DNA from: Verrucomicrobia bacterium ADurb.Bin006
GTDB taxonomy: Bacteria; Verrucomicrobiota; Verrucomicrobiia; Limisphaerales; J093
DNA length: 64,000 nt
Direction of reading: 5' to 3'
NCBI GenBank assembly: GCA_002071485.1
Contig: MWFF01000078.1
Span: 3,890 to 67,889, forward strand
A model generated the notes under the pieces. That model saw only the letters and a list, made by a program, of their open reading frames with translations, was not told the DNA's origin and searched no databases. Below are positions 23,801-58,765 of the stretch, one piece after another. The position numbers and the translations under genes are program-made. Every line of letters begins with the position of its first letter. Within the stretch, counting starts at the first letter, position 1.

Positions 23801-23805
23801 AAAAC

Positions 23806-23854: not shown

Positions 23855-23916
23855 TCGTCTTGATTCTCCGCCGGCGCCTGGGGTTCGTCACCCCGGGCGC
23901 CGAGCATCCTCGGTCT

Positions 23917-26841: not shown

Positions 26842-26978
26842 GGGTTGGGTTCTTATGGGAGTATAGTGATGTTGTGTCACATGACTTGAATTCAGGCTGG
26901 TTTCGCAGCGAGTTTGCTACATGACCATCGAGGCGGCAAGCGTTTATTCTCAACGTTTCATTCTCAGCCTCGTCGAGC

Positions 26979-38197: not shown

Positions 38198-38359
38198 GGC
38201 AATCGATTGGCGATTGCGTGGGAGACACGCCCGCAGTTGCACCGGCAGAGGCTGGATCGTTGTCATGATCAACTCCTATCCGAAACCCGTCCAACTGTCG
38301 ATGAACGCATTGCGTCCGGACCGCCATTGCCTCCGCGACCCGGACCTCAGGACTTTGTG

Positions 38360-41500: not shown

Positions 41501-41821
41501 CCCCATGCCAGGCGCCCCCACCCCCTGCGCTTCCCAACACCCGGGAACCTGAATCGTACGCGCATCGGGCCACGGCTGGGCGTAGAAGGCGTTCCAGCCC
41601 GGATGACGCAGCGGGGCCACCGGGCGCGTGGTGAATTCCCATTCGCCACGGAGCGAAAGCACGGATTGCAGCGGCGACGCGACCGCGGGATTCACCACGG
41701 CCGGCAATGCCGCCCGCCCGCCCCAGGTGTCGACGCCAGTCAGCCAGCCATCCTCCCCCCCGGCCTGGACGCCATTGCGCCAGAGACTCGACGCGAGGCA
41801 GACAAGGGCAACGATCCTCAT
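38522..41821 (-). CDS. Glycoside hydrolase family 2-like protein with extra C-terminal domains
   Basis: Start trimmed to ATG 41821 (MRIVALVCLASSLW). GH2 sugar-binding-type block YRGDAWYRKTVAIPEAWRGQRVWLKVGGV...VWVN, and a TIM-barrel block FMYVRLHTHCELPEYFEAADEAGVLV. Confidence 0.8.
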   Translation of the reverse strand: MRIVALVCLASSLWRNGVQAGGEDGWLTGVDTWGGRAALPAVVNPAVASPLQSVLSLRGEWEFTTRPVAPLRHPGWNAFYAQPWPDARTIQVPGCWEAQGVGAPGMGDSWDCKWDHCAKPLRAVYRGDAWYRKTVAIPEAWRGQRVWLKVGGVRSQGWFWVNRTPVACVDNYCGTYKYDITDLVEAGSQAVIVAEVNNVPPSRKGLFSSTHRFGGLYRDVELEATPDTRIDYAWVRGDFDNQTAEVHATVACENGVCTLEQPRLRVTLRTSDGQAAGEGDREVVFDPRLKSAEVICSIPLTRFQPWSPESPALYRAEILLCDGDRPVHGWAERFGVRKFEVRGDRFYFNNTPCFIRGYGDDFVYPLTLVSPASREEHLRHFRTARQAGFMYVRLHTHCELPEYFEAADEAGVLVQPELPYYGDYPTEAFTFDPIRDLKELITHYRRHVSLATYCMGNEGTLGRPLGIQIYKLVKQLDPDRLVLHQDGTFNTAENSDFRNGPINAWQPGSFACDAPFVAHEYLNLSVKQDPRLAAKFSGVMLPPVPIETRDDWLTDAGLDRRWGDACQDAAHALQRHYQKLGLEAARMDPACDGYSFWTIVDVVVKQGDTYSAQGFLDPFWEPKSNGYTPEAFRVFNAPTVLLLVTEPSARIAVAGDRIRADFWVSHYGDQPLKQTRVSWTLRADKSVLAEGVCSGGDVDLGSVRSLARAEFVISDLQQPAHAILDVSLAETGIRNQWDFWLFPKRGTRTGAGIAVAPALLPQLVPLYSGLVAADDPEAERAALLVSFFGSPDVEPALASGKRVLLINRTTGAPNVSLGWWAMGEQVGTAFARHPALGVFPHDGHLSPLAFRILKRGLKLPALPGLHPDEMFVVGEGLDSYYLYAAEARIKQGRALMTFGLDLLSGHPEGTCLLDGLIRYAQSDRFDPRGTVSTLASAPAPNGWSRTLEAGDVGYDHAPLNGVQLDVARAMRGKNELIWETQPVPATAPHHEVFAITWEGGMGYFAEPQGTFALYVDDTKVLDIPAISESDTAWWNADRTVSLKYERDNSRPEMGRLTLSLPSSSVTPGKPLRLKVVGSDSNSRRWFGVWQTLGGLSPNG

Positions 41822-42097
41822 ACAGGCCTGGGAGCTGGTACGCGGGGCGCCGGGGCCCGGACAACCCTTTGCGAAGGCGTTCATGGGCGCAGGCTGCGGT
41901 GAGCCGGCGCCAACGTCAAGAAGCGTGAGAGACACCGGAGAACAACCGTGATTGCCTGCCGCGCAGCCAACCTTTGTCGAAACCTCCGTTGCCCCCACAC
42001 AAATCAAGGCGGTGTAATCGCGGCTGGGCCGGGAACAAGGAGCAAAGCACTGGGATAGGTTGACCGATGCGATGAAATGTGGGACTTTTCCAGCGTC

Positions 42098-42625
42098 ATG
42101 AAATGGACTCCGCGCCTGGCGCTCGTGTGCGTGGTCGGCGGCTGGCTCTGTCCTGAGACCTTGCCTGCCGGCTGGATCGACATCCTCCCCGGACGTAGCT
42201 GGACTGCCCAATTCTACGGTGCGCGGCGCTATGTCAAACCGATCGCCCCTCAGACCCAACTGGCCACACCGCCGGCGACTCTCTCTCCAACACCCCCGCC
42301 TCTGCTGGGCACGACCCCGCCCGCCCGACCCCAGACCAACACGGTCGACGCAGAGATTCTCAAGAAACAGACAGATCAGAAGGCCGAGACTCTTAAAAGA
42401 ACCATCGAGTTCCAGAAGAAACGAGCCGAACAGGGGTCAGCCGTCGCCCAATTCGACCTTGGCAAGCGATATCTGACGGGTGACGGCCTCGAGAAGAATC
42501 TTCAGGAAGCCAGGAAATGGTTCGAGGCGGCTGCCAAGCAAGGCCACGCAGGAGCCGCAGCCAGGATCGAGGAAGTGGGAAAGCTCGAAGCCGCGGCGAC
42601 CAAAAAAGCCGAGCCAAGCCCATAG
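42098..42625 (+). CDS. Sel1-repeat (TPR-like) secreted protein
   Basis: Signal-like MKWTPRLALVCVVGGWLC. The Sel1 repeat is AEQGSAVAQFDLGKRYLTGDGLEKNLQEARKWFEAAAKQGHAGA. Confidence 0.75.
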   Translation: MKWTPRLALVCVVGGWLCPETLPAGWIDILPGRSWTAQFYGARRYVKPIAPQTQLATPPATLSPTPPPLLGTTPPARPQTNTVDAEILKKQTDQKAETLKRTIEFQKKRAEQGSAVAQFDLGKRYLTGDGLEKNLQEARKWFEAAAKQGHAGAAARIEEVGKLEAAATKKAEPSP

Positions 42626-44140: not shown

Positions 44141-44665
44141 TCAATACGCGGACGCGGTGATCGAGCTGGGAGCCGACGTCACGGGCTCGGCCTTGTGCGG
44201 GTGGTAGCGAGCGATGATCGTGACGCGATCGGATGGCAGCGATCGGGGCATCCAGCTCAGAACCAGGCGATAGCCCGTCCCTAGCACCGTGGTGAACTCG
44301 TTATGGGCCAGTTCGGCCGGGGTGAATGTCCAGCGATGGAACGGCATCGGCAAAGCGGCTGGGCTGGGCGTGCCTTCATAGGCGATCAGTTCGAGTGTGC
44401 CGGATCGGAGAGGCATGGCGCGCGGGCTCGATCGGCTTGTGGCAAAGAGCTTCACCACCACGCCGTCCGCACCCGGTCTGCGGTCCAGATTGACCGCGAC
44501 CGGCAGCCCGAGGAGGTTCAACTCGTCGATGGCCGACGAGGAAGCCGCGCGGGGCGTCTTGCTGTTGGTGACGCAGCCGCAGAGGGCCACGGCAAGCAGG
44601 CAGGCCGCGCAAGCCCCCGCGGCTCGCCGCAGGCCGTTATGAATTCCGAATTGGATCGATATCAT
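44141..44665 (-). CDS. Lipoprotein of unknown function directly downstream of the secretin (pilotin candidate)
   Basis: ATG start. Lipobox LLAVALCGC followed by VTNSK. 174 aa with no other motif. Confidence 0.65.
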   Translation of the reverse strand: MISIQFGIHNGLRRAAGACAACLLAVALCGCVTNSKTPRAASSSAIDELNLLGLPVAVNLDRRPGADGVVVKLFATSRSSPRAMPLRSGTLELIAYEGTPSPAALPMPFHRWTFTPAELAHNEFTTVLGTGYRLVLSWMPRSLPSDRVTIIARYHPHKAEPVTSAPSSITASAY

Positions 44666-44725: not shown

Positions 44726-47700
44726 TCACTGCGGAGTCTGGCTTTCGAGGGTTTTCGGGGGCAGCAGAGGATCGAGCACACGGCGCTGAAGCGGATCGCG
44801 CTGGAACTCGCCCTGGATGGTCGATCCCCGGAGTTCCTCTTCGGTGAAGGTCTGGGCGTCGAAGCTTCTGCCCTCGCCTTCTCCCTTGAGCAGGATTTGC
44901 GGGGTCAGAACAACGAGCAGTTCTTTGCGGGTTTGGCCTTTGCTCTTGCTGCGGAACAGGACCCCCAGACCCGGGATGTCTCCCAGAAGAGGCACCTTCT
45001 TGGTTCGCTCGTCATCAATGGTCCCGATCAGCCCGCCGATCAGGACCGACTGCCCGCTCTTGACGGTCACGGTCGTGGTGGCGGTGCGCTGGTTGATGAT
45101 CGGCAAGTCCTCCCCCTTCGAGATGGTGACCTTCGAACTCGAGAGATCCGAGATGCTCGGCGCCACGTCCATCTTCACGTAGCCGTCGGGACTGATCCGC
45201 GGGGTGACGGTGAGCATGACACCGACGTCCCGGTACTCGATGGCGCTGACCGTTCCGCCCTGCGGAGTGACCTGGGTGCTTTGGACGACCGGGACGCTTT
45301 GGCCGATGTTGATCGTGGCCTCCTGGTTGTCGGCAGTGAGAATCTGGGGGCGGCTCAACACCTCGAGCCGGCCCTGGTTCTGGAGGGCGCGCACCAGAAA
45401 CCGGTAATTGCTGCCGGTGACGGAAGACCAGTACCCGCCGTAGTCCTGGAGGAGCTCCCGCTGTCCAAAATCCGTCCCGGTGCTCACCACAGGGTCGGTG
45501 TCGGACGTGTAGTCCCATTCCACGCCTAGTTGGGTGGTCGAGTCGAGCGTGACCTCGGCAAGCAGGACCTGGATGAGCACTTGCGGCTGGGGTTGATCGA
45601 GTTCCTCGACCAGTCCCTGGACTTCCTTGAAGTAGCGCGGGCTGGCGGAGATCAGGAGGCTGTTGCTGTTGGTCTCCGACACGATGCTGACTTCGCGGTC
45701 GAGGATGTTCTGCGCGGTGCCCACGCCGGAGGGGCCGAGGATCGACATGATCCGCTGGAGATCCTGCTGGAGGAAGGTGCGCAGGGAAGCCTCGACGGCC
45801 TGCGAGCGCGCGTTCTTGAGCCGGTACACCTTGGCCGTGCGCTCCTGCGCCGGCGTGGAATCGAGGGTGGCGATGATTTGCGTGGCGAGGGCGACGTAGT
45901 GTTCCGTGCCGCCCACCAGCAGGCTGTTGGTTCGGAAGTCGACGGTTACCGAAAGGGCGTCTTCCTGGGCGGATCCGACCACCGCGCCGATGGCTTCGGC
46001 CGGCGCCTCGCCCTCGGGACCGGTCGCGTCCGTCGTGGCAGGCATGACGTATTGCACCGACTGCTGGCCGGCGCCCGCGGCGCCGACCCGCTGGAGACGG
46101 AACAGGCTGGTGAGGACCTGGGCCATCTGACGGGCATCGGCGTTTTTCAGATGAAACACCTTGATCTGCGCCATCGTGGGGGCCGTGGCGTCGAGGTGCG
46201 AGATGACCTCGCTGAGCAGCGCCATGTAATCGAGCGGGGCGGACACCACCAGCGAATTCGCCCGAGAATCGGGCACGATCAAAATGCCTTCCTTGAGCGC
46301 GCTGGTGATCAGCCGCTCGCCTTCCTGTGTTTTGGTGATGAACTGGAGCAGGGACTGCCGGTTCGGACTGGCCTCGGTAAGGGCGCGGGGATTGTTGTTC
46401 AGCACGTTGTTGAGCACCAGGGCCATCTCGACGGCACGCCCGTTCTGCAACGGGAAAATGCGGATTTCAGCCACACGCGCCACCTGGTCCGTGTCGAGCT
46501 TCTTGACGAGGTCGGCGATGCGTTTGAGATCCGTCTCGCCGGCCGAGACGATGATGGCATTGAGGCGCTCGTCGACATCGAGCACCACCGGGACCAGCGC
46601 GGCGCCCGGAGCCGCCCCGGCGCCCGCACTGCCCCTGAAGAGCGACTGGAGGGTCTGTTGCACGCGCCGCGCGTCTGCCTTGGCCATCTGAAACACCTGG
46701 ACCTGCGCGCCGCCGGCCGGCTGCTCGGTATCGAGCTTCTCGATGAGCGAGGCGACCATGGCAAGATCGTCATCGGACGCCCCGATGATCAGGGCGTTGG
46801 CCCAGCCGTCGGCAATGACGGTCACCGGTTCGGGCGGCTGGCCCTGGATGCGGGGGGGGCGGTTGGTGAAGAGGCGCTGGAGTGTGGCCTGCAGCTTCGT
46901 GGCGGTGGTGTGACGCAGTTCATACACCCGGAAGTTGGTGCGCGCCATTGCCGTATCGGTGTCGAGTTGCTCGATCATTCGCTCCACGGCGTCGAAACTC
47001 TCCTTGCCGCCGGTGATCAGGAGCGTGTTGGTGCGGTCGTCGGCCGTGACAGTGACCGGGGCGGACCGCTGGGCGGCGCCCACGGCGGTCTCGCTGGCGC
47101 GTCGGGCGCGGAAGAACTGTTCGAGCACCGTGGCCAGGTGCGAGGCGCGCGCGCGCTTGAGTGCGAAGAGGCGGATATCGCTGGCCCCGGTGAAATCGGC
47201 GGTATCGAGTTGACGGATGAGTTCCTTGACGATCAGGAGATTCTCGGGGCTGGCCGAGACGATCAGCGTGTTCGAGCGCGGATCGGTGGCCAGGGCGAGC
47301 GCGTCACGCCGGCTGCGGCGCCCGCCTTCAACCGCCAAACCCGGGCGGTAGAGGCCCTGATCGAGCAGCGACCGCAACAGGGTCGAGACACGCTGCACAT
47401 CCGCATGTTCGAGCGTGAAGGTCTCGATGAGGCCTCCGGTGGCCACTGGCTCGGCATCGAGCTTGGCCACCAACTCGCGCACCAACTCGAGGTTCGGCTT
47501 GCTGGCCGAGATGACCAGCGCATTGCTGAGGGTGTCCGCCTCGACCTCGACGCGATCCGAAGGCGCGGGCTGCTGGCCGACGGGCGTCATGCTCCGAAGC
47601 CGGGCGGCGAACACGCTGCGGATTGTGACCGCCACGCGGGCCGAGTCGTTGTACTCCAAGCCGAGGACGCTCAGTTCCACCGACGGGTTCTCCGGCGGGC

Positions 47701-50700
47701 GGTCGAGCTTGACCAGCAGGGCGTCGATGGCCTGGTTGTCGTCCACCCCGGCGGCGACCAGGAGGCTGTTGCTGCGCGGATCGGCCAGGATGACGGGCCG
47801 GTTGCGCTGCATGTCGGGCGTCCGTGCGGCTTGATAGCGCCGGTTGAAAAGGTCGCTCAGCGTTGTCGCGAGCGTCCCGGCATCGGAGTGCTCCAGGGGA
47901 ATCAGCCGCACCTGGCCGACGAGCGAGGTGCCCGGCTGATCCAACTGCGCCACCAGCGTCTGGACAAGATCGAAGCCGTCCGGACCGCCGCTGATCAGCA
48001 AGCTGTTGCTCCGGGCATCGGGAATCACGGCCACGCGCGAGGATGGGCCCATCCGGCGCCCTCCGCCCCGGGGTCGGGCCCGTTCATCGAGCAGTCGCTG
48101 GAGGGATGAGGCGATGGTTGTGGCGTCGGCATGGGTGAGGGGGAGGATGCGGATGCCGCGCAGGTCGTCGGGCAGTTCGCGATCAAGTTGCTCGACAAGT
48201 TCGGCGATGCGTTCGAGGGCCTTGGCGGCGCCCGCGGCGAGCAGCGTGTTGGTCCGCTCGTCAACCGACACGTTCGCCCGGTCCTCGGGGCGGGGGCGTC
48301 CGGCGCCCGCGGCGCGGGTGGACAGGTCATTGAGCACCTGCAGGATGCTCGAGGCGTCCGCATGGGTGAGGGGGAACACGCGAAGCGATTCCGCCCCGGC
48401 GGCGGAGGGCGTGTCGAGGAGCGCGACGACGGCGGCGAGGGCATCGAGGTTTCCGGGTGTCGAGCCGATGACGAGCCGGTTCCCACCCTCGGCATTGGGT
48501 TGGGCCGGGTCAGCCACGATCTTGATCGGCTGGGTCAGATCCAGACCGATCGGACGCCCCTGGGCATCGAGCAGTTTCAAGCGGCTGATCTGCTCCTGCA
48601 ATTGGCGGGCTTCGGCGCTCAGTTCGCTCGAGGCATCGGGGCGCAAGACGCTCTTCATCAGCCCCGCCACCGCGGGCGCCTGCGCGTGCTTCAGATCGAG
48701 CGTCCGCAGCTCGATCTCGGCGAACTCGGACGACGTGTCCAACTCGTGGATCAAGGCCTCGATACGGTCCAGCACGCTCTGCCGGCCGACCAGGAAGATG
48801 CCCCGGCTGCGCGGATCGCCCGCAATGGCCGCCGGCTCGCCCGGACGCGCGCTGGTCAACTGGGTCAGCATCTGGCGAAGGAGCGGCAACACCCGTTCGG
48901 GCGTCACGTGCTCGAGGGGCACAAGGCGGTGCGCCAGTTCCGCCGTCAATCCGCCCTCGTCCAATTGCTCGATGATCGATTCGAGCAAAGCGAAATCCGC
49001 CGGACGCGCGCGCACGATGACGCTGTGCGTGCGCGATTCCGCAACCACGGCGACCTTCGGCGCGACGACCTGCGGCTGGCCCTGAGAGCGCCCCTGGTTG
49101 TCGACACGCCCCCCGCCTTGACTCTCGGCCTCTCTGCGCCCGTCCGCGCCCCGTCGGGGCGTGGCGCCGCCCGGCTGGCCCGCCTGTCCCTGAGCTTGCG
49201 TCGGAACCGGCTTGAACAATTCGTTCAGCACGCGCGCGACCACGACGGGGTCGGCTTCCTTGAGGCGGAACTGGCGTATCTCGAACTCCGGCGAGGCGAT
49301 CGAGGCCGAAAGCTGATAAACAAGTGAACTGATGTGATCCAGCTCGTAGGCCGGACCCGAGGCGATCAGCGCGTTGGCCGCCTTGTCCACGGCGATGACC
49401 ACCTCCGGAGGGGCCGCCGGCGACGGAGGGGCGTCCGGGGCCGCCGGCGCGTCGGGTCGGGTGGGTGTGGCGGCAGGCGCGTTGGTGACGGGGGAGAGAG
49501 AGGGAGCCGGACGTGGCGTTGGGCTGGGCAATCGGTCGACGAGCCGGACCTGTCCCTCGTTGAGCTGCGAGTAGAGGTTGGTCAGCATGGCGGCCATGCG
49601 CTCGACCGGGACGTCGGTCAGGGGGATCATTCGGACCTGGAGGCTGGTGTCGCGGGCGGCTTCATCGAGCTTCAGCACGACGCTCTCGATTTCGAGAAGA
49701 TCGGCGGGCTTGGCAACGATGGTCAGCGAGTTCGAAAACGAATCGGGCTCGATGAGCGGCCGTTCGGCCCGGGGGCGCTCGGCGAAGAGGGCCTCGGCCT
49801 TCAGCGCCACGTCAAAGGCCCGCGCGTTCTTCAGCCAGTAAAATTGCACCTGGCGATCCGAGTGTTGCGGCGCCTGGTCGAGCGTGACAAGAAGTTGCTC
49901 CACCAGCTTGAACGAGTCCGCCGAGCCCGACACCAGCAGCGAGTTCGTCCGCTCGTCAGCCGCAATCGTGACGGTGCTGTCCCGCTGGAACCGATTGCCG
50001 AAACGCGGGCGCGCCCGCGAGAGCCCCTCGATCAACTGCGTGAGCACGCGGCTCAACTCGCGCGCACTGCCGTGCTCGAGCTGGAAGACCCGCGTCTCGA
50101 TCTGGTCGGAAGGACTGTCTTGGTCGAGTTCCCGAATCAAGGCGGCAATCCTCTGCACTTCGGCTTCCGGGCCGCTGAGCAGCAGGCTGCGCCCACCCGG
50201 CACGGCCGTCACGCTCACCCGCGGCGCGGTGTTGGGCGGACTCTGCGTGGCGAGCGTTTGCGTCACCGCGGCGGCCACCGCCTCGGGCTGGGCCTTCTCG
50301 ACCCGCACCGTCTGGATGCTTGCGGCGTCCTCGCTGCGGGGCGAATCGAGGGTGCGAATGAGCTGGGTGGCCAGCGCGAGCTTCTCCGGGGACGCCTGCA
50401 CGACGACCGCGTTGAGCGCCGGCGCGGCGGCCACGCGGACCTCGCCCGAACCGGTCCCGCCCCGCCAGCCGCGCGAGCTGCGCCAACGTTGACTGGCGTC
50501 TCCCAAGAGCATGGACTGCAGAACCTCGACCACCTGGGCCGGATCGCCATGCTGGAGGCGGAAGGTGCGGATTTGCGACGCCGCCGCTGCGGCCGCGCGC
50601 AAATCGTCAAGGACCTTCTCGATCCTCTCGAACTGGTCGGCCGTGGCCGCCACCATCAGCAGTTCCGAGCCGCTGTCGATCTCGAACCGCGGCGCCGGCG

Positions 50701-53443
50701 GTGCGGCCGACATCGGTTGATCCCAGCGACGGCGGGATTCCGACGGGTCGGCGAAGATGCGGTTGAGGGCCTCCGCCAGCTCGACGGATCGCCCCTCCGG
50801 CAGTGCGTAGGTGCGCACCTCGATCCCCCCAAGCGTGGGCGGGACATCGAGGGCCTGCACAGTCTCACGCAGCCGATCGATCATCGACTCGCCAGCCTCG
50901 ATCACCAGCGCACGGTCGTCCGGGGCCGCCGTGAGCGCGATCCGCGTGTCCGGATCGGAACTGCGCATCTGCGGGTAGAACATCTGCGTGACCATCGCCG
51001 CGATCGACGCCGCCGAGTTGCGGTCGATCGGCAGGATTTCCAACTTGCGCCCGCCCGCGAGCCCGGCCTCGTCTAGCCGGTTGATGATGTCCTCGACCAG
51101 TTCGAGCTGGGAGTCGGGAGCCGACACAACCACGCAATTGCTCCGTTCTTCAGCGGCGGCCGCCACGTAGCCTGCCCCGCCGCCGCGGCGGCGCGATTCG
51201 TACCCGCCCATTGTGCTCAGGACCATGTTGGCCACCTGCCGCGCATCGGCGTTCTTCAGCTTGAAGACTCGGGTGCTTTGGGGGGTCGGGACGCTGTCGA
51301 GTTGGGCGACGAGGGTCTCGACGCGGTCGAGCGCCTCCGCCGTGCCGGCGAGCAGCAGCCGGTTGCCCACGGGCGAGGACTGCACCTGGACGCGCCCGAA
51401 CGGGCTGGCGCCCCGGCCGTCACGCCCAAACTGATACAGCGCCTCGTTCAACATCGGGGCCAGGGCCTGCGCCGATCCCGACTTGACCTCGACGACGCGC
51501 GTTTCAATGCCTCCGGCCGCGGCGGCCGTATCGAGTGTTCGCACCGCCTCCTCGAGCCGGGCCATCATCGACTCGTCGGCTTCGAGCACGAGGGCGCGGT
51601 CATTGGGCGCCGGAGCGAGCGCGACGCGCTGGGTGGGATCGTACGAGTTGACTTGGGGGGCGAACAACCGCGCGAGCGTGCCGGCGACCGTGGCGGCCGA
51701 GTTGTTGGTGAGTTCGAGGATTTTCAATTGCCGCCCGCCGACCGCGCCCACCGCCTCGAGCTGTTCGATCACCTGCTCGATCATCTTCATCTGGCCTTCC
51801 GAAGCCGCGACGATCAGCGAGTTGCTGCGATCGTCCGCGGCAGCCAGCACTGCACCGCCGCCGCCGCGGCGGCGCCAGTCGTATCCGCCCATCGCGCCCA
51901 TGATCAGGCCCGCGACGCGGCCGGCGTTTGCCTGGCGCAGCTTGAACACGCGCGTCACTTCGGCCGGCGCGCTCACCGTGTCGAGTTGCTCGATCAGGCG
52001 CAGGACGTCGTCGAGGGCGGCCGGGGCGCCGGTCAGCAGTATCCGGTTCCCCATCGGCGCGGCCTGGATTCGCACCTGGCTCATTGGATTCGGGCCGGGT
52101 GTGTCCCGAGTCAGATCGGTCAGGGCATCGCGGAGCATCGGCGTCAAAGCCTGGGCGGATCCCGACTTGAGATCCACCACGCGCAGTTCTCGCTGCGGCG
52201 TCGAACGGTCGGGGGCCTTCTCCGCGGGCGTCTCCTGAGTGGACGGATCGAGACGGCGAATGAGCGCGGTGATGGCGTCGAGTTGCCCAATGGCCGGCGC
52301 CGTCACAATCAGCCGGTTGCTGGTCCGATCGGTGATCACCTTGGCGCGGGTGTCGCTCTCGCGCCCGCGATCGCCTCGCCCAGCGACGCCCGGGATCGCC
52401 TGGCGGACCATTTCGGCCAGTTCCTCGACGGGCATTTGTGGGTAGAACACCTTGATTTCGCTCGCGGCGGCGCCCGCATCGCTCTCGAAACGGGCAATCA
52501 GGTCGCCGGCCATGTCGATCCGTTCCGACGGCCCGAACAGCACCAGCGTGTTCGAGGCCTCGGCAAAAATCGCGGTCACGTAATCGGTGGGGTCGGGCGG
52601 CAGCACTTCGTAGGCCTTGCGCTGCTCGTTGAACACGGTCCGCTTCGGGGCCGTGGCGATGCCGAACGTGCGGTTCAACAGGTCGCTCATCAACGTGCCG
52701 GACACGTTGCGCAGGGCGAACGTCTTGACCTGCCGCTGGACCGGCGAGGCCGTGTCCACCTGGTCGAGCAATTGCCGGACGCGCTGGATGTTCGCAAGGC
52801 GATCGGTGATGATCAGCCCGCGCCCGCGCGAGAGCGACGCCACGGAACCGGCTGACGAAAGCATGGCGCTGATGGGCTGCGAGAGTTCGCCCGCATCCAG
52901 ATTCTTGAGATCCAACACAACCGTGACGAGTTCGCCGGGGCGCACATCGCCAACGTTCTCGAGCCCGCGGATCAGCTTGAGCGGCATTTGGGACAACGCC
53001 TTGAAGGGAACCAGGCGCAGGTAACGGTCGTCTTCGATCAACATGACGCTCTTGGTCGCCAGGATCAGGTTCAACGTGTCCAGCGCCTCCCCGTATGTGT
53101 AGGGCTTCGGATCCGAAAACGTCAGCGCGCCTTCTACAACCGTGTCGGCGATCAACGGCTTGCCGGCCATCTGGCAGAAGCGCTGGATCGCCTCGGAATA
53201 AGGCATGCCGGCAAAGTCAAACCGGATGCCGGCCGCGTCGGGCGGCGCGTTCGTCGCTGTGCCCGATGGCGGGGTGACGGAGGCCGGCGTCGCGGCGCCG
53301 GCATCGATCGGGACGGCGTCCGGCGCCGAGTTTGTGGCCGGGACAGGCGTGTCGGCGCCCGCGCCGTCGGCCGCCAGCGGTCGCAGCGGCGCCAGGCTAG
53401 AGAGAGCCAAACAGACCAAACAGATGCAGTGATCGAGTCTCAT
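44726..53443 (-). CDS. gspD: Giant T2SS-type secretin (GspD family), 2,905 aa, with about 29 tandem Secretin_N-type modules
   Basis: Signal peptide, then an N0-like block (IRFDFAGMPYSEAIQRFCQMAGKPLI). Repeated modules follow the pattern hRhFxLxxxxA ... D.RSNSLhh.A ... h..hh..LD. The C-terminal secretin domain reads LLAEVTLD ... GGLIGTIDDERTKKVPLLGDIPGLGVLFRSK. Its ATG overlaps the upstream stop (ATGA). Confidence 0.9.
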   Translation of the reverse strand: MRLDHCICLVCLALSSLAPLRPLAADGAGADTPVPATNSAPDAVPIDAGAATPASVTPPSGTATNAPPDAAGIRFDFAGMPYSEAIQRFCQMAGKPLIADTVVEGALTFSDPKPYTYGEALDTLNLILATKSVMLIEDDRYLRLVPFKALSQMPLKLIRGLENVGDVRPGELVTVVLDLKNLDAGELSQPISAMLSSAGSVASLSRGRGLIITDRLANIQRVRQLLDQVDTASPVQRQVKTFALRNVSGTLMSDLLNRTFGIATAPKRTVFNEQRKAYEVLPPDPTDYVTAIFAEASNTLVLFGPSERIDMAGDLIARFESDAGAAASEIKVFYPQMPVEELAEMVRQAIPGVAGRGDRGRESDTRAKVITDRTSNRLIVTAPAIGQLDAITALIRRLDPSTQETPAEKAPDRSTPQRELRVVDLKSGSAQALTPMLRDALTDLTRDTPGPNPMSQVRIQAAPMGNRILLTGAPAALDDVLRLIEQLDTVSAPAEVTRVFKLRQANAGRVAGLIMGAMGGYDWRRRGGGGAVLAAADDRSNSLIVAASEGQMKMIEQVIEQLEAVGAVGGRQLKILELTNNSAATVAGTLARLFAPQVNSYDPTQRVALAPAPNDRALVLEADESMMARLEEAVRTLDTAAAAGGIETRVVEVKSGSAQALAPMLNEALYQFGRDGRGASPFGRVQVQSSPVGNRLLLAGTAEALDRVETLVAQLDSVPTPQSTRVFKLKNADARQVANMVLSTMGGYESRRRGGGAGYVAAAAEERSNCVVVSAPDSQLELVEDIINRLDEAGLAGGRKLEILPIDRNSAASIAAMVTQMFYPQMRSSDPDTRIALTAAPDDRALVIEAGESMIDRLRETVQALDVPPTLGGIEVRTYALPEGRSVELAEALNRIFADPSESRRRWDQPMSAAPPAPRFEIDSGSELLMVAATADQFERIEKVLDDLRAAAAAASQIRTFRLQHGDPAQVVEVLQSMLLGDASQRWRSSRGWRGGTGSGEVRVAAAPALNAVVVQASPEKLALATQLIRTLDSPRSEDAASIQTVRVEKAQPEAVAAAVTQTLATQSPPNTAPRVSVTAVPGGRSLLLSGPEAEVQRIAALIRELDQDSPSDQIETRVFQLEHGSARELSRVLTQLIEGLSRARPRFGNRFQRDSTVTIAADERTNSLLVSGSADSFKLVEQLLVTLDQAPQHSDRQVQFYWLKNARAFDVALKAEALFAERPRAERPLIEPDSFSNSLTIVAKPADLLEIESVVLKLDEAARDTSLQVRMIPLTDVPVERMAAMLTNLYSQLNEGQVRLVDRLPSPTPRPAPSLSPVTNAPAATPTRPDAPAAPDAPPSPAAPPEVVIAVDKAANALIASGPAYELDHISSLVYQLSASIASPEFEIRQFRLKEADPVVVARVLNELFKPVPTQAQGQAGQPGGATPRRGADGRREAESQGGGRVDNQGRSQGQPQVVAPKVAVVAESRTHSVIVRARPADFALLESIIEQLDEGGLTAELAHRLVPLEHVTPERVLPLLRQMLTQLTSARPGEPAAIAGDPRSRGIFLVGRQSVLDRIEALIHELDTSSEFAEIELRTLDLKHAQAPAVAGLMKSVLRPDASSELSAEARQLQEQISRLKLLDAQGRPIGLDLTQPIKIVADPAQPNAEGGNRLVIGSTPGNLDALAAVVALLDTPSAAGAESLRVFPLTHADASSILQVLNDLSTRAAGAGRPRPEDRANVSVDERTNTLLAAGAAKALERIAELVEQLDRELPDDLRGIRILPLTHADATTIASSLQRLLDERARPRGGGRRMGPSSRVAVIPDARSNSLLISGGPDGFDLVQTLVAQLDQPGTSLVGQVRLIPLEHSDAGTLATTLSDLFNRRYQAARTPDMQRNRPVILADPRSNSLLVAAGVDDNQAIDALLVKLDRPPENPSVELSVLGLEYNDSARVAVTIRSVFAARLRSMTPVGQQPAPSDRVEVEADTLSNALVISASKPNLELVRELVAKLDAEPVATGGLIETFTLEHADVQRVSTLLRSLLDQGLYRPGLAVEGGRRSRRDALALATDPRSNTLIVSASPENLLIVKELIRQLDTADFTGASDIRLFALKRARASHLATVLEQFFRARRASETAVGAAQRSAPVTVTADDRTNTLLITGGKESFDAVERMIEQLDTDTAMARTNFRVYELRHTTATKLQATLQRLFTNRPPRIQGQPPEPVTVIADGWANALIIGASDDDLAMVASLIEKLDTEQPAGGAQVQVFQMAKADARRVQQTLQSLFRGSAGAGAAPGAALVPVVLDVDERLNAIIVSAGETDLKRIADLVKKLDTDQVARVAEIRIFPLQNGRAVEMALVLNNVLNNNPRALTEASPNRQSLLQFITKTQEGERLITSALKEGILIVPDSRANSLVVSAPLDYMALLSEVISHLDATAPTMAQIKVFHLKNADARQMAQVLTSLFRLQRVGAAGAGQQSVQYVMPATTDATGPEGEAPAEAIGAVVGSAQEDALSVTVDFRTNSLLVGGTEHYVALATQIIATLDSTPAQERTAKVYRLKNARSQAVEASLRTFLQQDLQRIMSILGPSGVGTAQNILDREVSIVSETNSNSLLISASPRYFKEVQGLVEELDQPQPQVLIQVLLAEVTLDSTTQLGVEWDYTSDTDPVVSTGTDFGQRELLQDYGGYWSSVTGSNYRFLVRALQNQGRLEVLSRPQILTADNQEATINIGQSVPVVQSTQVTPQGGTVSAIEYRDVGVMLTVTPRISPDGYVKMDVAPSISDLSSSKVTISKGEDLPIINQRTATTTVTVKSGQSVLIGGLIGTIDDERTKKVPLLGDIPGLGVLFRSKSKGQTRKELLVVLTPQILLKGEGEGRSFDAQTFTEEELRGSTIQGEFQRDPLQRRVLDPLLPPKTLESQTPQ

Positions 53444-54444
53444 GGTAGAACCGGGTGTGTGGGAATCGGGTGAAGCGTCGCCGGAAGTTCTTCCGGCGCC
53501 AGTAGGCGTCGGTCAGCCAGGGTCTGACCCGGCTCGACCGCCCAGTAGTTGGTGTCGATCCGCCAGATGAGGCGGCTGTAGCTGATCAGGCCGGCCTTGC
53601 CGGGCACGGGCTGCGGGCGGTAGTCCACCGCCGCCACCTCGCCGTCGAGCAGTTCATCGCCGGGCCGGCGGACAACCAGCCGCTGTTGCCGCGCGTCGAA
53701 CAGGTGCACCTCCGGTTGCCCGTCCCACGAAGAGAGCGAGACGATCCGCAAATGCGGCTGTTCCGACTCAGGCGTCGGCGCACCCGCAGGCGGCGGATTC
53801 GCGGCGCGCTCCTGGGGCGAGTGTGGACGGAAGAGATCGCGCTGCGTGATTGCGTCGTATCGCCGGCGCAGGGGCGCATCGAGGCTCAGTTCCGCCTCGG
53901 GGATCGCGGCCTCGATCTCGACCGCCGGCAGGAATACCAATGTCGCATACCGAAACCGAATCCGCGTACGGTCGCCTTCATTGGCGGGAGACAGCGAGAG
54001 ACCCTCGATCCGTTGCAGCCGCGGCTCGCTCTGCAACAGAAAGAGCAAATCCAGCAAACGCGCCAGAGACCCCTCCCCCTGCACGGACCATCCCACCTCC
54101 TCCGCGCCCGGCAGGCGGCGGCGTCCGACGGGGACGCGGGTGAAATCGGCTTCGCGCAAGCCCACGCGCACGATCTGGGCCGTCAACAAGGCTCCAAGTC
54201 GCGCCTCCGCCTCCGCGGCCTGGCTGGCGAACAGCCGGGCGGCGCCGGCCCGCACTTCGGTGTCCGCCTTCAGAAAGGCCTGTCTCTCCTTCTGCAGCGA
54301 TTTCAACCGCGATTCGAGCGCCAGAATCTGCCCATCGAGAGTGCGCAGGGGACGATTGATCGCAGCCCTCAGCACAAAACCCATGGCCAGCAGCCCGGCC
54401 ACGCCCAACGCCGCCCAGGCAAGAAGTCGGACCCGCTTATTCAC
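53440..54444 (-). CDS. Bitopic inner-membrane T2SS component: PilO/GspM-like N-terminal half, PilP/GspC-HR-like C-terminal half (tentative)
   Basis: Start trimmed to GTG 54444, preceded by GGAAGGAGG. TM helix LLAWAALGVAGLLAMGFVL, a coiled coil (LALESRLKSLQKERQAFL), then a beta-rich C-terminus (LRIVSLSSWDGQPEVHLFDARQQRLVV). Confidence 0.6.
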   Translation of the reverse strand: MNKRVRLLAWAALGVAGLLAMGFVLRAAINRPLRTLDGQILALESRLKSLQKERQAFLKADTEVRAGAARLFASQAAEAEARLGALLTAQIVRVGLREADFTRVPVGRRRLPGAEEVGWSVQGEGSLARLLDLLFLLQSEPRLQRIEGLSLSPANEGDRTRIRFRYATLVFLPAVEIEAAIPEAELSLDAPLRRRYDAITQRDLFRPHSPQERAANPPPAGAPTPESEQPHLRIVSLSSWDGQPEVHLFDARQQRLVVRRPGDELLDGEVAAVDYRPQPVPGKAGLISYSRLIWRIDTNYWAVEPGQTLADRRLLAPEELPATLHPIPTHPVLP

Positions 54445-56317
54445 GCCAGCCTCCTTCCGGACGGCGTCGACGCATTCGCGGCTCACCCCCCGCCTGGGAT
54501 CCACGCTGCTCCCTCCAGGCCCCCGATGCCGGCGCCGCAGCCGGAACGGCGCCCGGTGGTGCGCCGTGAGAGGCCTCAGCCGGCGGCGCGGGTGACGCAG
54601 CCGGCGGCGCGGGTAACGCAACCTGGGGTGTGGGAGCCGCAGCCTGGGGCGTGGGAGCCGACGCCGCGGCCTCAGAGGCGGCGGGGGAATGGGGTGGACG
54701 CGATTCGACCGCGAGGGCATCGAGATTGTTTGTGATCGCGGTTGGGATGCCCAGTTCGAGGTTCGCCTGGAACCGGAATCCGAAGCGGTCCATCGCCGGC
54801 ATGATGGCGGGCGCCTTGACCTGGTAGCCGGCAGAACGCAGCGTTTCCAACAGGCGATCCACAGTCTCACCGCCGCGGACCTTGACCGCGAGGTTGAGCG
54901 TGTTGCGGGCGCTTGCCGAAAGCGCGGTCACATAGAGATCCCGACTGGGCGGCAGCAGGGCGCTCAAGACAGTCAGGTGATCGAGCCAGTTGCGCCCGGT
55001 CTCCGACCATTCGGCGAGGGTCCGGGCCTGGTTGCGGACATGCCGGTAGGCGGCGAGGTTCTTGGACCCGAGCGTGATCTGTTCCTGCAGTTGGGCGCGG
55101 TGCCGCTCCCGGGCCCCTATCCACCGCGCCCGCAGGCCGGCAGCCGCCAGCAGAACCGCCAGAATCGCCGCCACAATACCCAATTGCCGCGCGCGCCGGT
55201 TGTCACGCGCGACCGGAGGGCGCTTGGGATTCAGAAGATCGATCGGCAACCCCTCGGGTTCGAGCGCGCCCAGGGCGAGACCGATGGCCGGCAGCGCATG
55301 GGTCGGCGACTCGGCGTTGTCGGACGCCTCACTCCACGGCCCCGCGGGCTCGAGAACCTCGGCCTGCACCCCCAACTGGCTCGCCAGCGCCTGCGCCAGG
55401 CCCGGCTCGGCGCCGGTCGACCCCGTCACAAGGCAACGCCCGATCGGATGGTGATCCGCAACGCCTTCGTAGCTGTGCAGGCTGCGCACAACCTCGGTCA
55501 ATACCGATTCGGCCGTTGGCTCGACCAGCGCGGGCCCAGGTCCCCGCGCGGGCCCCGCGCCTGCCGCCAAGGCCCCAACCTGGCTGAACACCAACGCGCC
55601 CTCGAACAACACGTCGAACAGGACTTCGCGTCGATGGACAGAGATCAGGGCGACACACCCTTGCGTCGTTCGAGAATCCAGGCATTGCGCTGCGCGCGCG
55701 CTCGCCATCGACCGCAGTCCCAAGCCCGCCAGCTTCACTCCCGCCGCTTTGGCCAGGGACTGGTAGTGCTCAACCGTGTCGCGTCGGACCACGGCGGCCA
55801 GCACGCGGACCGGGGTCGCCGCCCCTTGCGGGCCCGGGCGGTCCGGCGCGGTCGGCTCAGCCTGCAGGGAGGCTGGATGCTTCAGAGTTCTGAAATCGAT
55901 CACAGCTTCGTCGAGACCGAACGGCAAGTCGCGCTGCAGTCGCAGATGCACCATCGCCGCGATCTCCGCCTCGCGTTCGGCCGGCGGCAAGTCGAGAGTC
56001 CGCAGCATCACCCGCGCGCGCGGCACCCCCATGACCACGGCGCCAGGGCGAATTCCAGCGCGCGCCAGCGCGGCGGCAAACACCGGACCCGAAACCGACC
56101 CCGTCTCCGAATCGGCGTCCGGCGGCCGATCCAGTGGAACAGCGGCATGCCGGACAACCCGGGGCTCTCCGCTGCGCGACGCCGCCTGCACCACCTCGAG
56201 GAAGCCCCCTTCGAGATCGAGGGCCGTGATGCTGGTGCGCCGACTCCGGCGCGACGCTGTCGGCCGGTTCAAACGGGCCGCAAGACCAGTCCAGATGTGA
56301 TCGAGGTTGAGCGCCAT
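54437..56317 (-). CDS. GspL-like protein built as a PilM (actin-like) - TM - PilN-like fusion with a Pro/Ala-rich tail
   Basis: N-terminal ITALDLEGGFLEVV...VVMGVPRARVMLRTLDLPP is a PilM-type fold. TM helix LGIVAAILAVLLAAAGL. Periplasmic PilN-like region. The C-terminal tail is APTPQAAAPTPQVALPAPPAASPAPPAE. Confidence 0.7.
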   Translation of the reverse strand: MALNLDHIWTGLAARLNRPTASRRSRRTSITALDLEGGFLEVVQAASRSGEPRVVRHAAVPLDRPPDADSETGSVSGPVFAAALARAGIRPGAVVMGVPRARVMLRTLDLPPAEREAEIAAMVHLRLQRDLPFGLDEAVIDFRTLKHPASLQAEPTAPDRPGPQGAATPVRVLAAVVRRDTVEHYQSLAKAAGVKLAGLGLRSMASARAAQCLDSRTTQGCVALISVHRREVLFDVLFEGALVFSQVGALAAGAGPARGPGPALVEPTAESVLTEVVRSLHSYEGVADHHPIGRCLVTGSTGAEPGLAQALASQLGVQAEVLEPAGPWSEASDNAESPTHALPAIGLALGALEPEGLPIDLLNPKRPPVARDNRRARQLGIVAAILAVLLAAAGLRARWIGARERHRAQLQEQITLGSKNLAAYRHVRNQARTLAEWSETGRNWLDHLTVLSALLPPSRDLYVTALSASARNTLNLAVKVRGGETVDRLLETLRSAGYQVKAPAIMPAMDRFGFRFQANLELGIPTAITNNLDALAVESRPPHSPAASEAAASAPTPQAAAPTPQVALPAPPAASPAPPAEASHGAPPGAVPAAAPASGAWREQRGSQAGGEPRMRRRRPEGGWRE

Positions 56318-56327
56318 GACTCAAGAC

Positions 56328-57872
56328 TCACCACGCCAGCCGCCCACCCGCACTCGTTGTCGACACGCCCCCCGCGCCTCCGTTTTCCAGCACCGCCAGC
56401 GGCACCGGGAATCCGAACCGCGTCAGATCCCGCAGGGCGGCGACACGCGGCGGATGCGGCGCCGTGTCCACCATGACGCTCAACACCCGATAGCGCCCGG
56501 ACGGCACGGCATAACCCAGGCAGCGGAAGCTGAATTGGAGGCTGCGCGTGGTCAGGTGCGGAACAATCTGCTTGAACTCCTCGGCGGTCACCAGGCCGCG
56601 CCGATACAGCCACGCGGGTGTGCGCGCTTCGTCCGCCGTGAGACCGGGCCGCGTCGCGAGGATCGCGTCCGCCAGGGCCTCGCCCACAAACGGAATCGCG
56701 ATCAGAACCGCGCGCGGCGCCGTGTTCACATTGATCAGCCCTTCAAGTCGCGCGGCATTGGTCGTGGTGCACTGGTCCAACACGACGGACAATTCCTCGC
56801 GTCCAATGCCCGAGCGCAGACGCTGCGGGCGGCCCTCGGCATCCTGAAACTCGCCTTCGGCTTCGAGCAATGCGGCCACGTGGGAAAGCGCCTGGCCGGC
56901 GCGGCGCAGGGCCGCTACGTAATCGAGTGTCGCCTGAGGCAGGCCGCTCTTCGAGAGGTCGGCCTTGGCATCGTTGAGATTGATGCGCGGCTGCCCATCG
57001 CTGTTGACGTTCAGGTCGTAGCTGATCGTCGTGAGATGCTGCTGCAAACCCCGATCCAACTGGCCGTCCGCATTGTCCAGCGGCTTGCGCGTCTCCCCGT
57101 CGTCCTCGTTCGGGTCCAACCGAAGGTTGTAGTTCGCGTCCTCCCCGTAAAGCAACTGACTGCTCAACCCTGCCGCGGCAAACCACTCCTCGATGGATGG
57201 GACCGGGCTGGCCGACGCCGCCGGGATCGAAGGCGCAGCCTCCGACGGCTGCCCCTCCGATACCGGTGCCCCCGACAGCCGGGTCTCGTCCGACCGCGCG
57301 TCCGGCGGCAGATCGTTCGCACCCGCCCGACCAGAGACGTCCGGGGCCCATGATGCAGCTCTCGGGCCGTTCGTCCGCGGCGCGGTTTCGGATCGCGGGA
57401 CGGCGCCCGCAAGCGCCGCGGCGAGCTTCGCATCGAGCCCCGGCAGCTTTCCGAGCCATGCGGGATCGTGATGTCGCACCGACAGCTTGGACGCTTCGTC
57501 CGTCAAACCGAACCGCACCTCGGCGCCCAGGGAATCCGAGGCCGAGTACACCGTGAAAAACCACTGGTCATCGCCGTCCTGCTTCACAAACTGATGCTGG
57601 AACATCGCCGGGTTATCCTCCCACCCCATCCAGTCGCCCCCTGGATCCGTCGCCACGGCCAGCGCCCGGGCCACCCCGCTCATGGCCGCCGCCCAGGCCT
57701 GCTCGCGCTGGACACTCGCAGTGTGGGCGGCGGCCTCGGACCGCATCGCGTAGAGAACACTCGCCGCCAGCATCGAACTGAGCAACACGACCACCAACAC
57801 GATCAGCAGAACAAAGCCCCCTGATCGCCACGGCCTCGCTCGGTCTTTGCGCGGATAGCAGTGCGTCTTCAC
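56328..57872 (-). CDS. gspK: T2SS minor pseudopilin GspK-like
   Basis: N-terminal hydrophobic GGFVLLIVLVVVLLSSMLAASVLYAM with no conserved Glu+5. The C-terminal helix-hairpin-helix is INVNTAPRAVLIAIPFVGEALADAI. GTG start overlaps the gspJ-like stop. Confidence 0.75.
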   Translation of the reverse strand: MKTHCYPRKDRARPWRSGGFVLLIVLVVVLLSSMLAASVLYAMRSEAAAHTASVQREQAWAAAMSGVARALAVATDPGGDWMGWEDNPAMFQHQFVKQDGDDQWFFTVYSASDSLGAEVRFGLTDEASKLSVRHHDPAWLGKLPGLDAKLAAALAGAVPRSETAPRTNGPRAASWAPDVSGRAGANDLPPDARSDETRLSGAPVSEGQPSEAAPSIPAASASPVPSIEEWFAAAGLSSQLLYGEDANYNLRLDPNEDDGETRKPLDNADGQLDRGLQQHLTTISYDLNVNSDGQPRINLNDAKADLSKSGLPQATLDYVAALRRAGQALSHVAALLEAEGEFQDAEGRPQRLRSGIGREELSVVLDQCTTTNAARLEGLINVNTAPRAVLIAIPFVGEALADAILATRPGLTADEARTPAWLYRRGLVTAEEFKQIVPHLTTRSLQFSFRCLGYAVPSGRYRVLSVMVDTAPHPPRVAALRDLTRFGFPVPLAVLENGGAGGVSTTSAGGRLAW

Positions 57873-58765
57873 CGGCCACCCTCCGGGGTCATCCCCCCGT
57901 TCACGCTCCCCGATTCATAGTCGTCGGCGACGGCTGGAGCCGCGCTCGAAGCGAGCCCCGCCGGAATCGCAATCACTCGCCGAAACACCTCCTCGGGCAG
58001 CGTGTCCGAGGCGGCATCCGACGGAACCGGCTCGAGGGCGAGCGTCACCTCGATGCCGCGGGGCAGATGGGAACCGGACCACGAGTCCTGCCACTGCGCG
58101 CCATCCCAATAGCGCAGGCGCAAATAGCGAAGTTCGGGAATGGTCAGCGGCGGCGCGCCCGCGCTCGGGAACGAGGTGGTGATGCGTGTGCCCTCTTCCT
58201 CGACGCTCGCAGTCTCGACCGCCCACACGTCGTTGGTGTCAGGCGGTTCCGACGACTCCTCCACAACGCCCGTTTCCGCCGGGTCTGTTTCCACAGAGTC
58301 CGGCTCCGGTTCTCCCGATCCAGAGGCGGCGGGCGTCACCACGGTCTCCGTCCGAATCAATCCCCCCGCTGCACTCGATTCCTCGGACGCGCGCATGGCA
58401 TAGCGAATCCGACGGAGCAGAACCGGGGTTGACACAGGGGCGTCGTCGTCGACCGCTGCCACATTGCCCGATTCGGGAAGCTCGCACTGAAGGAACTCGA
58501 TCTCTTGAGAGCTGCCGCGGAGACTGTCGGGCTGCGCGCTGGCCGTCCGCAGCTCCGTTCCCAGGCGGTCCATGCACAGACGCACGGCGGCCAGTCCCGT
58601 GGCCGAGTCGAGCGTGCTGTCCCGGAGCAGGGCGGCCTGCTGGTAGTAGTAAAGGACGACGATCAGCAGGCCGATGGCAATCGACAGGGCCAACAACACC
58701 TCGAGAAGCGTAAACGCCCCGGCACCCAGCGGCACAGCCCGCACACGAAGCGGTCTCATCCTCAC
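57869..58765 (-). CDS. gspJ: T2SS minor pseudopilin (GspJ-like by position)
   Basis: Prepilin-type N-terminus GAGAFTLLEVLLALSIAIGLLIVVLYYY. The start is either GTG 58765 or ATG 58759. Confidence 0.6.
   Translation of the reverse strand: MRMRPLRVRAVPLGAGAFTLLEVLLALSIAIGLLIVVLYYYQQAALLRDSTLDSATGLAAVRLCMDRLGTELRTASAQPDSLRGSSQEIEFLQCELPESGNVAAVDDDAPVSTPVLLRRIRYAMRASEESSAAGGLIRTETVVTPAASGSGEPEPDSVETDPAETGVVEESSEPPDTNDVWAVETASVEEEGTRITTSFPSAGAPPLTIPELRYLRLRYWDGAQWQDSWSGSHLPRGIEVTLALEPVPSDAASDTLPEEVFRRVIAIPAGLASSAAPAVADDYESGSVNGGMTPEGGR

Follow-up and report, generated by a model that had tools for sequence, protein, structure and literature searches.

Why does a bacterial type II secretion system (T2SS) encode a secretin of 2,905 amino acids (aa), and what might such a protein build in the cell envelope? 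This question is raised by a 64,000-nt stretch of Verrucomicrobia bacterium ADurb.Bin006 (GenBank assembly GCA_002071485.1, contig MWFF01000078.1, positions 3,890 to 67,889 of the forward strand; hereafter the window, in which all coordinates are counted), where one uninterrupted open reading frame (ORF) at 44726..53443 (-) occupies the gspD position of a T2SS operon. An earlier reading of this DNA, made without database searches (the sequence-only reading), had described the ORF as a secretin built of one N0-like domain, about 29 tandem N-domain modules and a barrel region confined to the last ~285 aa, and had proposed that stacked modules would form a periplasmic vestibule far beyond any described, possibly as an adaptation to the envelope of the Planctomycetes–Verrucomicrobia–Chlamydiae (PVC) bacteria. 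The domain composition given in that reading was borne out by the analyses reported here, which make it almost certain that the protein is a T2SS secretin carrying about 29 N-domains; these may stack into a tube spanning the periplasm.

The gene encodes a secretin of the GspD type

The gene is a single frame of 2,905 codons plus a stop and specifies a precursor of 311 kDa. Against the NCBIfam GspD equivalog TIGR02517 it scored 957 bits versus a cutoff of 351, a sum inflated by 15 matched stretches, the best of which aligned model positions 159-592 with aa 2424-2853. The PilQ model TIGR02515 reached 391 bits, and its best match covered the C-terminal pore part only. The Pfam and NCBIfam scans of the secretin showed no AMIN domain, nor any domain for peptidoglycan binding or of another structural type. 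The ATG overlaps the stop of the preceding gene (ATGA), which suggests translational coupling.

As read from the translation, the protein begins with a predicted signal peptide of the ordinary type without a lipobox (aa 1-25, 53369..53443 (-)), likely cut between PLAA and DG, and a Pro/Ala/Thr-rich linker of ~45 aa (aa 26-71, 53231..53368 (-)) connects it to an N0-like domain (aa ~72-160, 52964..53230 (-)). The N0 assignment came from phmmer, by which aa 72-400, that is N0 and the first modules, aligned to N0-N3 of GspD from enterotoxigenic Escherichia coli (ETEC; 5zdh/3ezj) with E 4e-7. When 14 family members were aligned, numerous columns within aa 81-160 were invariant. In the Pfam scan no N0 model reached E 0.01 on the window secretin, and PF21305 is precomputed on numerous of its homologues. 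The array of Secretin_N modules, with the beta-alpha-beta-beta-alpha topology, then extends over aa 163-2617 (45593..52957 (-)), as determined by Pfam, a self-derived hidden Markov model (HMM), AlphaFold2 (AF2) and Foldseek.

The 288 aa beyond module 29 (aa 2618-2905), close to the ~285 aa that had been assigned to the barrel, consist of the secretin pore domain (aa 2618-2851, 44891..45592 (-)) and a short tail. PF00263 (Secretin) gave one match, at aa 2686-2851 (E 2e-51), and the best PDB sequence matches of the pore region were T2SS GspD proteins (6i1x, 2e-43; 5wq7, 1e-40; 6hcg, 7e-40). The C-terminal tail (aa 2852-2905, 44729..44890 (-)) is predicted to form short helices (AF2 model residues 536-563, low confidence) and retains residues conserved in the family, namely T2867, L2871, S2874, D2883, L2890 and P2895. 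It did not match any known S-domain model in the Pfam and NCBIfam scans; it could be S-domain-like and is a candidate pilotin-binding site.

The array comprises 29 divergent but regularly spaced modules

Pfam Secretin_N matched the protein in 25 separate stretches (E 9e-271), an independent count that sets a lower bound. Using an HMM seeded with the best module and iterated on the secretin itself, 29 consecutive modules were resolved over aa 163-2617, in agreement with the number first segmented by eye. Because every module was significant alone (E 1e-11 to 1e-27), a chance origin of the pattern is excluded. The modules measure 62-109 aa by their HMM envelopes and are joined by linkers of 8-10 aa, nearly all of 9 aa, the exceptions being two linkers close to the N-terminus, which measure 15 and 20 aa. 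The 9-aa length is almost invariant family-wide and is close to that of the 7-8-aa N1-N2 and N2-N3 linkers in the alignments with ETEC GspD and ExeD, a similarity to solved GspD that would be consistent with the same ring-to-ring connection.

The fold of the modules was then predicted. From a 30-sequence alignment, AF2 modelled modules 21-24 as four beta-alpha-beta-beta-alpha units with a mean predicted local distance difference test score (pLDDT) of 79 and a predicted template modelling score (pTM) of 0.41, and the best PDB matches of this model in Foldseek were the N-domains of ExeD, GspD, PulD and XcpQ (E down to 3e-9). The model of aa 2328-2905 (pLDDT 60, pTM 0.37) matched T2SS secretins with E 6e-25 (5zdh) to 4e-23. 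The predicted models thus confirmed the module fold expected from the sequence, and as monomers they are uninformative on stacking.

Within the protein, module identity averaged 24% over HMM match columns, or 28% by pairwise alignment, and reached a maximum of 55%. The top identities belonged to the module pairs 4/7, 5/8 and 6/9, which reveal a duplicated three-module unit (50843..52183 (-)) consisting of modules 4-5-6 (aa 421-639) and 7-8-9 (aa 649-867), whose paired modules are 48-55% identical. In the DNA of this triplet the matching repeats D4 and D6 are just 70-74% identical. Module similarity peaks at offsets of 3, 6 and 9 modules.

Comparison with eight relatives showed that modules 1-3 and 21-29 share 58-74% identity with their positional counterparts, as against ~28% among modules within the protein; for the barrel-proximal modules 21-29 (aa 1846-2617, 45593..47908 (-)) the range is 58-70%. 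Since these modules are closer to their counterparts than to each other, most modules have an order-wide, position-specific sequence. Such conservation would be expected if each module had set neighbours within a defined structure, and not if the modules were interchangeable beads.

Insertions of 25-40 aa lie between helix 1 and strand 2 of modules 27 and 28 (aa 2328-2529, within 45593-46462 (-)). That of module 27 (SPNRQSLLQFI...) is strongly conserved across the family, and both were modelled with pLDDT <50; they could be lumen-facing gate loops. Further insertions, in modules 15, 16 and 18, are of low complexity and not conserved.

The gene is genuine and under purifying selection

Short-read metagenomes are known to put repeat-rich genes at risk, and several related contigs end within the gene, as they might if the ORF were a product of repeat expansion during assembly, a chimeric sequence or a pseudogene in decay. 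Several results leave this possibility negligible. No direct DNA repeat in the gene is longer than 98 nt, and the copies of that one are 70% identical, which makes repeat-driven misassembly implausible; the modules are divergent, as described above, and long near-identical DNA repeats are lacking. A database protein cluster of 96% identity, with the same 2,905 aa, derives from four further contigs. When the window gene was aligned to its counterpart on a related genome contig (L003), the alignment was gap-free at 96.8% aa identity, and the ratio of nonsynonymous to synonymous substitution rates (dN/dS) was 0.11 for the whole gene and likewise 0.11 for the array, with 0.09 for the barrel, indicating that array and pore are under equal purifying selection. 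A decaying pseudogene is likewise ruled out by this dN/dS and by the full-length genes in independent genomes.

Complete genes are also present in assemblies of other kinds. A giant secretin gene with 46 modules lies in the closed 7.9-Mb chromosome OZ260084.1 (L034), and further complete genes were found in L006 (35 modules), L035 (44) and L016, L027 and L056 (43-47), whose long-read or hybrid status was taken from the record names. Collectively, these results confirmed that the giant secretin gene is real and conserved.

Giant secretins form an order-wide family in which module number varies

When one genome was scanned for each GTDB species, relatives were identified on 415 contigs, so that the family occurs in at least 415 species-level genomes, nearly all of them metagenome-assembled genomes (MAGs) of Limisphaerales/Verrucomicrobiota. 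Details were obtained for the best 80 of these contigs, which, with few exceptions, are MAGs bearing the label Verrucomicrobiota, Verrucomicrobiales, Limisphaerales or Pedosphaera and whose complete ORFs contain 24-55 modules. The closest genomes, at 96-97% identity, are two Verrucomicrobiota MAGs, L003 (from an anaerobic membrane bioreactor) and L007 (RA.bin27), in keeping with the PVC host that had been suspected from the sequence.

Protein searches gave the same picture. A homology search retrieved at least 120 proteins of 1,644-4,934 aa, of which the shortest listed (1,644 aa) appears truncated, as it lacks a Secretin domain and its array reaches the last residue; the other 119 listed homologues span 2,476-4,934 aa and carry 24-54 modules by our own HMM. 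When the last 478 aa were searched exhaustively with HMMER against 50%-identity cluster representatives, the top 150 matches were mostly 2,000-5,532 aa long with up to 56 modules. Length across the family follows approximately 79 aa per module plus 836 aa, and the complete members examined contain 24-56 modules in up to 5,532 aa. The window secretin, with its 29 modules, is therefore among the shorter proteins of a family that is large, spans the order and has yet to be characterised.

No isolate-named carrier was found among the 120 matches listed for a search seeded with contig L064 ('Pedosphaera parvula'), which are metagenomic or MAG proteins throughout. Contigs with giant secretins of the Limisphaerales type were also noted under unrelated labels, including Akkermansia muciniphila/Akkermansia sp., Klebsiella pneumoniae, Cyanophyceae, Proteobacteria, Methylomirabilota and Kapaibacterium (L021, L022, L024, L033, L037, L042, L062, L065, L070, L073, L076, L080, L081 and L082); wrong labels or contamination of the bins seem the likelier cause here than a true occurrence outside the order.

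To relate arrays of different length, the window modules were mapped by best match to relatives with 24, 35, 45 and 54 modules. Window modules 1-3 corresponded to modules 1-3 in all mapped relatives, and modules 12-29 mapped collinearly to the C-proximal modules of each relative, with one-to-one correspondence for about the last nine and a few gains or losses around modules 18-23. A plain C-terminal anchoring of module numbers was tried and rejected, as it fails for modules 12-20, where some relatives differ by 1-2 modules in either direction; the mapping by best match is the reliable one. Module number varies mainly between modules 3 and 12, and the units of this variable zone are recent duplicates, often in threes; the 4-5-6 triplet is present in two copies in the window protein, one in the 24-module relative and many in the 35- and 54-module relatives.

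Departure from characterised secretins

The difference from known secretins is quantitative yet extreme. The T2SS secretins GspD, PulD, EpsD and XcpQ (5wq7, 5zdh, 6hcg, 6i1x, 5wln) share with the window protein an N0 domain, N-domains with short connecting linkers, a C-terminal pore domain and a brief tail after it; GspD is, moreover, also encoded at the end of a gspE-M operon and provided the best sequence and fold matches. Solved GspD proteins, however, carry three N-domains after N0 in ~620-660 aa, whereas the window protein carries 29 in 2,905 aa, about ten times as many, and the window operon differs further in having no detected GspC and an adjacent lipoprotein that matches no known pilotin family. 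The type III secretion system (T3SS) secretins InvG and MxiD (5tcq, 6q14, 6rwk) share the pore and the ring-building N-domains, but belong to the injectisome, possess few N-domains and matched far more weakly (E 1e-15 to 1e-17 by sequence).

Deinococcus radiodurans DR_0774 (8co1) and Myxococcus xanthus PilQ (3jc8, 901 aa), which are among the longest solved secretin chains matched by the window protein, share the pore domain and measure 740-901 aa; no secretin chain matched by sequence in the PDB exceeded 901 aa. The extra length of M. xanthus PilQ is due to AMIN domains, not to dozens of N-domains. An architectural precedent is PilQ of Thermus thermophilus, whose periplasmic part, like that of the window family, is lengthened by extra N-domain rings; its six rings (N0-N5) in a complex of 350 Å were termed exceptional, and the addition of rings was read by its authors as a means of spanning a wide periplasm (PMC5745081). 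Thermus PilQ nevertheless serves pili and DNA uptake, is a 13-mer of 757-aa chains with an unusual N0, and has one fifth of the rings expected for the window secretin. The claim that the window protein lies beyond characterised secretins therefore stands against the longest PDB chain and the six rings of PilQ, but not as a one-off, given the at least 415 genomes and the arrays of up to 56 modules.

We found no description of giant secretins in open-access papers or on bioRxiv, where a paper in a subscription journal could be missed; a preprint on 'giant genes', considered as a possible earlier description, concerns other proteins. What is new is thus a family of secretins with dozens of predicted rings that appears in no searchable paper; the sequences themselves are already public, where routine automatic annotation has named them 'type II secretion system protein D', 'hypothetical protein' or 'secretin N-terminal domain-containing protein'.

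Operon partners of the giant secretin

The secretin is the last large gene of a minus-strand T2SS operon in the order gspE-F-G-H-I-J-K-L-M-D-lipoprotein, and the same order was found at two related loci, L001 and L083, whose secretins have 29 and 45 modules, respectively. Besides GspD, only GspG passed its curated cutoff, and E, F, H, I, J, K, L and M scored below theirs, yet in canonical order. gspE (61759-63729 (-)) encodes Pfam T2SSE with an N-terminal MshEN domain and has TIGR02533 as its best NCBIfam match (616 bits versus a cutoff of 630); gspF (60537-61742 (-)) encodes Pfam T2SSF and has TIGR02120 as its best match (319 bits versus 424); and gspG (59941-60471 (-)) reached 89.0 bits against TIGR01710, for which the cutoff is 88.85. 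They are followed by gspH-like (59208-~59930 (-)) and gspI-like (58762-~59250 (-)) genes, both with uncertain start codons, and by gspJ-like (57869-58765 (-)) and gspK-like (56328-57872 (-)) genes, all four matching below cutoff. The MshEN domain of GspE (aa ~103-240) was recognised by Pfam with E 9e-19, and the MshE-type motif for binding cyclic di-GMP (c-di-GMP), NF053729, scored 37.6 bits against a cutoff of 38, which hints that secretion may be under c-di-GMP control.

The predicted inner-membrane platform is encoded by the two genes preceding the secretin. The first product is a GspL-like protein of 626 aa (54437..56317 (-)) with a PilM actin-like domain (PilM_2, E 5e-19; TIGR01175), one transmembrane helix and a periplasmic domain; the second is a GspM-like bitopic protein of 334 aa (53440..54444 (-)), the N-terminal half of which matched NF040576 (GspM/XpsM) with E 2.9e-7, below cutoff, and the C-terminal ~170 aa of which matched no Pfam or NCBIfam family. 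A pilMNOP context was not seen, the operon having gspG-K pseudopilins and a fused PilM-type GspL. As no GspC was found among the scanned operon ORFs, the C-terminal extension of the GspM-like protein is a candidate for the N0-contacting partner in the role of GspC. Across loci with 24-55 modules, the GspL-like proteins measure ~550-650 aa, with a few estimates of ~700, and the GspM-like proteins ~326-347 aa; a few truncated or partial neighbour matches lie outside these ranges.

Directly downstream of the secretin, a predicted lipoprotein of 174 aa is encoded at 44141..44665 (-), with a signal peptide ending ...AVALCG before the C. Of the 75 related loci in which a neighbour could be detected, 72 have a homologue of 168-190 aa in the same place. 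The lipoprotein of the window matched no Pfam or NCBIfam family, the known pilotin models included, and is a candidate pilotin, perhaps of a new pilotin family.

A proposed stacked tube and its alternatives

Taken as a whole, the explanation that we prefer, including its mechanism, has in our estimate a probability of about 0.5. The secretin, as the GspD of a complete T2SS, would most likely assemble as a 12-15-mer like other secretins, a 15-mer having a calculated mass of 4.6 MDa; each N-domain position would probably form one ring, and the rings would stack coaxially to make a closed tube in the periplasm. With each ring assumed to add 3-4 nm, a value taken from the 350-Å length of Thermus PilQ with its six rings and barrel, thirty rings would give a tube of ~90-120 nm and 57 rings one of about 170-230 nm. 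N0 would lie at the inner end and dock on the inner-membrane GspL/GspM platform; because N0 is retained and well conserved, it probably still does so, in which case the tube would bridge the whole periplasm, and the pseudopilus (GspG-K) would push folded exoproteins through it. The length of the tube would find its best explanation as a means of bridging the enlarged periplasm, or 'paryphoplasm', that has been reported for this verrucomicrobial lineage. The outer membrane of Ellin514-type cells has reportedly been reinterpreted in a genomic study as a true outer membrane, and the paryphoplasm would then be an enlarged periplasm. In Ellin514 (subdivision 3, genus Pedosphaera), electron microscopy showed this paryphoplasm as a ribosome-free compartment between the outer and the inner membrane (PMC2647929). 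Individual lineages would tune the length by duplication or loss of modules, often by threes, in the part of the array near N0. Extended to the whole group, and put forward more tentatively than the mechanism itself, Limisphaerales/Pedosphaerales may build the longest secretion conduits known, of 25-57 rings, ~90-220 nm and 4-9 MDa, with module number as an evolvable ruler of periplasm width.

Several observations weigh against such a tube. The structural input on stacking is confined to the monomer AF2 models, both of which compared with solved GspD at a TM-score of ~0.3 and a root-mean-square deviation above 20 Å, so that their inter-module geometry is not superposable. The inner-membrane partners remain constant in size despite the differing module number, which is anywhere between 24 and 56 depending on the species and already differs between 29 and 35 in relatives that are 66-77% identical; with module number variable and partner size constant, a rigid tube would require very different membrane spacing in kin. 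By itself, constant partner size is neither proof nor disproof of a long tube. GspC, the usual partner of N0, had no match among the operon ORFs scanned with Pfam and NCBIfam. The premise of an enlarged periplasm derives from micrographs of Ellin514, not of the window host, and a paryphoplasm has been reported too for verrucomicrobial subdivisions outside the giant-secretin search. We also know of no native T2SS for which a pseudopilus working over ~100 nm or more has been described.

The partners that do not scale, and the rapid module change among close relatives, would fit somewhat better if only part of the array formed a channel, the conserved barrel-proximal modules making a vestibule of normal or moderate length and the variable N0-proximal modules a flexible or folded-back tether, a sleeve or a cage. 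A tether of this kind would let N0 reach the platform in the inner membrane even where the width of the periplasm varies, and it would agree with the copy-number variation and recent duplicates between modules 3 and 12, with the AF2 models lacking confident inter-module packing (pTM 0.41), and with the frequent disorder of the N0-N2 rings in solved secretins (PMC5745081). We consider this alternative unlikely, though it is the strongest of those weighed here, because the linker of 7-10 aa is kept in the duplicated units too and 9 aa leaves scant room to fold back, because modules 12-20 are collinear across the family as well, and because selection on the array equals that on the barrel (dN/dS 0.11). 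More improbable is a function outside type II secretion, in which a pilus, DNA-uptake or polymer 'nozzle' system would use the tube to guide a filament or polysaccharide. GspD/PilQ-family secretins are reported to be necessary for slime secretion via nozzle-like structures (PMC12475490), Thermus PilQ, also long, functions in pili and in DNA uptake, and the GspE of the window shares the MshEN domain with the ATPase of the MSHA pilus, with PilB and PilC models also scoring well; T2SS models are nonetheless the best for every component, GspD lying above its cutoff, GspG just reaching it and GspE, GspF and GspK having T2SS models as their top matches, the pseudopilin set G-H-I-J-K is full, the top PDB matches are T2SS secretins, and neither AMIN in the secretin nor PilT among the operon genes scanned was detected. 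Least probable of these three, by a small difference, is that the array is chiefly an envelope strut, a spacer or a periplasmic scaffold measuring membrane distance, with secretion secondary. The very large size of a 15-copy complex and a module number that differs by lineage in a ruler-like manner, in a gene conserved across the order, would suit such a structure, but the gene always lies inside a complete T2SS operon with conserved partners, conservation of its pore domain and gate region equals that seen in functional secretins, and Pfam and NCBIfam detected no peptidoglycan-binding or other structural domain in it. The stacked tube of a T2SS therefore remains our preferred explanation.

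Other features of the window

Plus-strand ORFs of up to 859 aa run antisense inside the secretin gene (for example, 45530-48109 (+)) and are most likely shadow ORFs of a coding region with 63-70% GC, not genes. A few kb downstream of the operon and on the same strand, two ORFs of 1,101 and 1,245 aa (34967-38272 (-) and 38522-42259 (-)) carry glycoside-hydrolase matches, to GH43/BNR and to GH2 sugar-binding and GH2 domains, respectively, and it is possible that their products are cargo of the T2SS. At 23779-26880, a 987-aa (-) ORF with Laminin_G_3 and Ig domains overlaps a 671-aa (+) ORF nearly fully; the domain scan there covered the minus-strand ORF. The window also encodes a class II (B12-dependent) ribonucleotide reductase with TSCPD (2217-5492 (+)) and the DNA polymerase III alpha subunit (30145-33870 (-)), housekeeping genes that indicate a chromosomal location and not a mobile element.

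Significance for the carriers and their envelope

Secretins are among the best-studied outer-membrane machines of bacteria, and the structural models known to us, whether for the T2SS, the T3SS or type IV pili, all assume a vestibule of three to six rings that fits a periplasm of 25-40 nm. The carriers of the giant secretins belong to a lineage of abundant polysaccharide degraders in soil, freshwater and bioreactors; for this reason, and given the downstream ORFs with glycoside-hydrolase domains, we infer that the system is probably their main route of enzyme export. If the numbers of 25-57 rings are true, it becomes a question how a pseudopilus or its cargo covers 100-200 nm, and the assembly and gating of a multi-megadalton complex, as well as the true geometry of the Verrucomicrobiota envelope, come into question too. 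The natural length series of 24, 29, 32, 35 and up to 56 modules, in operons otherwise identical, would provide an unusually clean system for relating ring number to membrane spacing. The envelope geometry of PVC bacteria, and the paryphoplasm in particular, have been in dispute for a long time; if module number does act as a ruler, that dispute would become readable from genomes.

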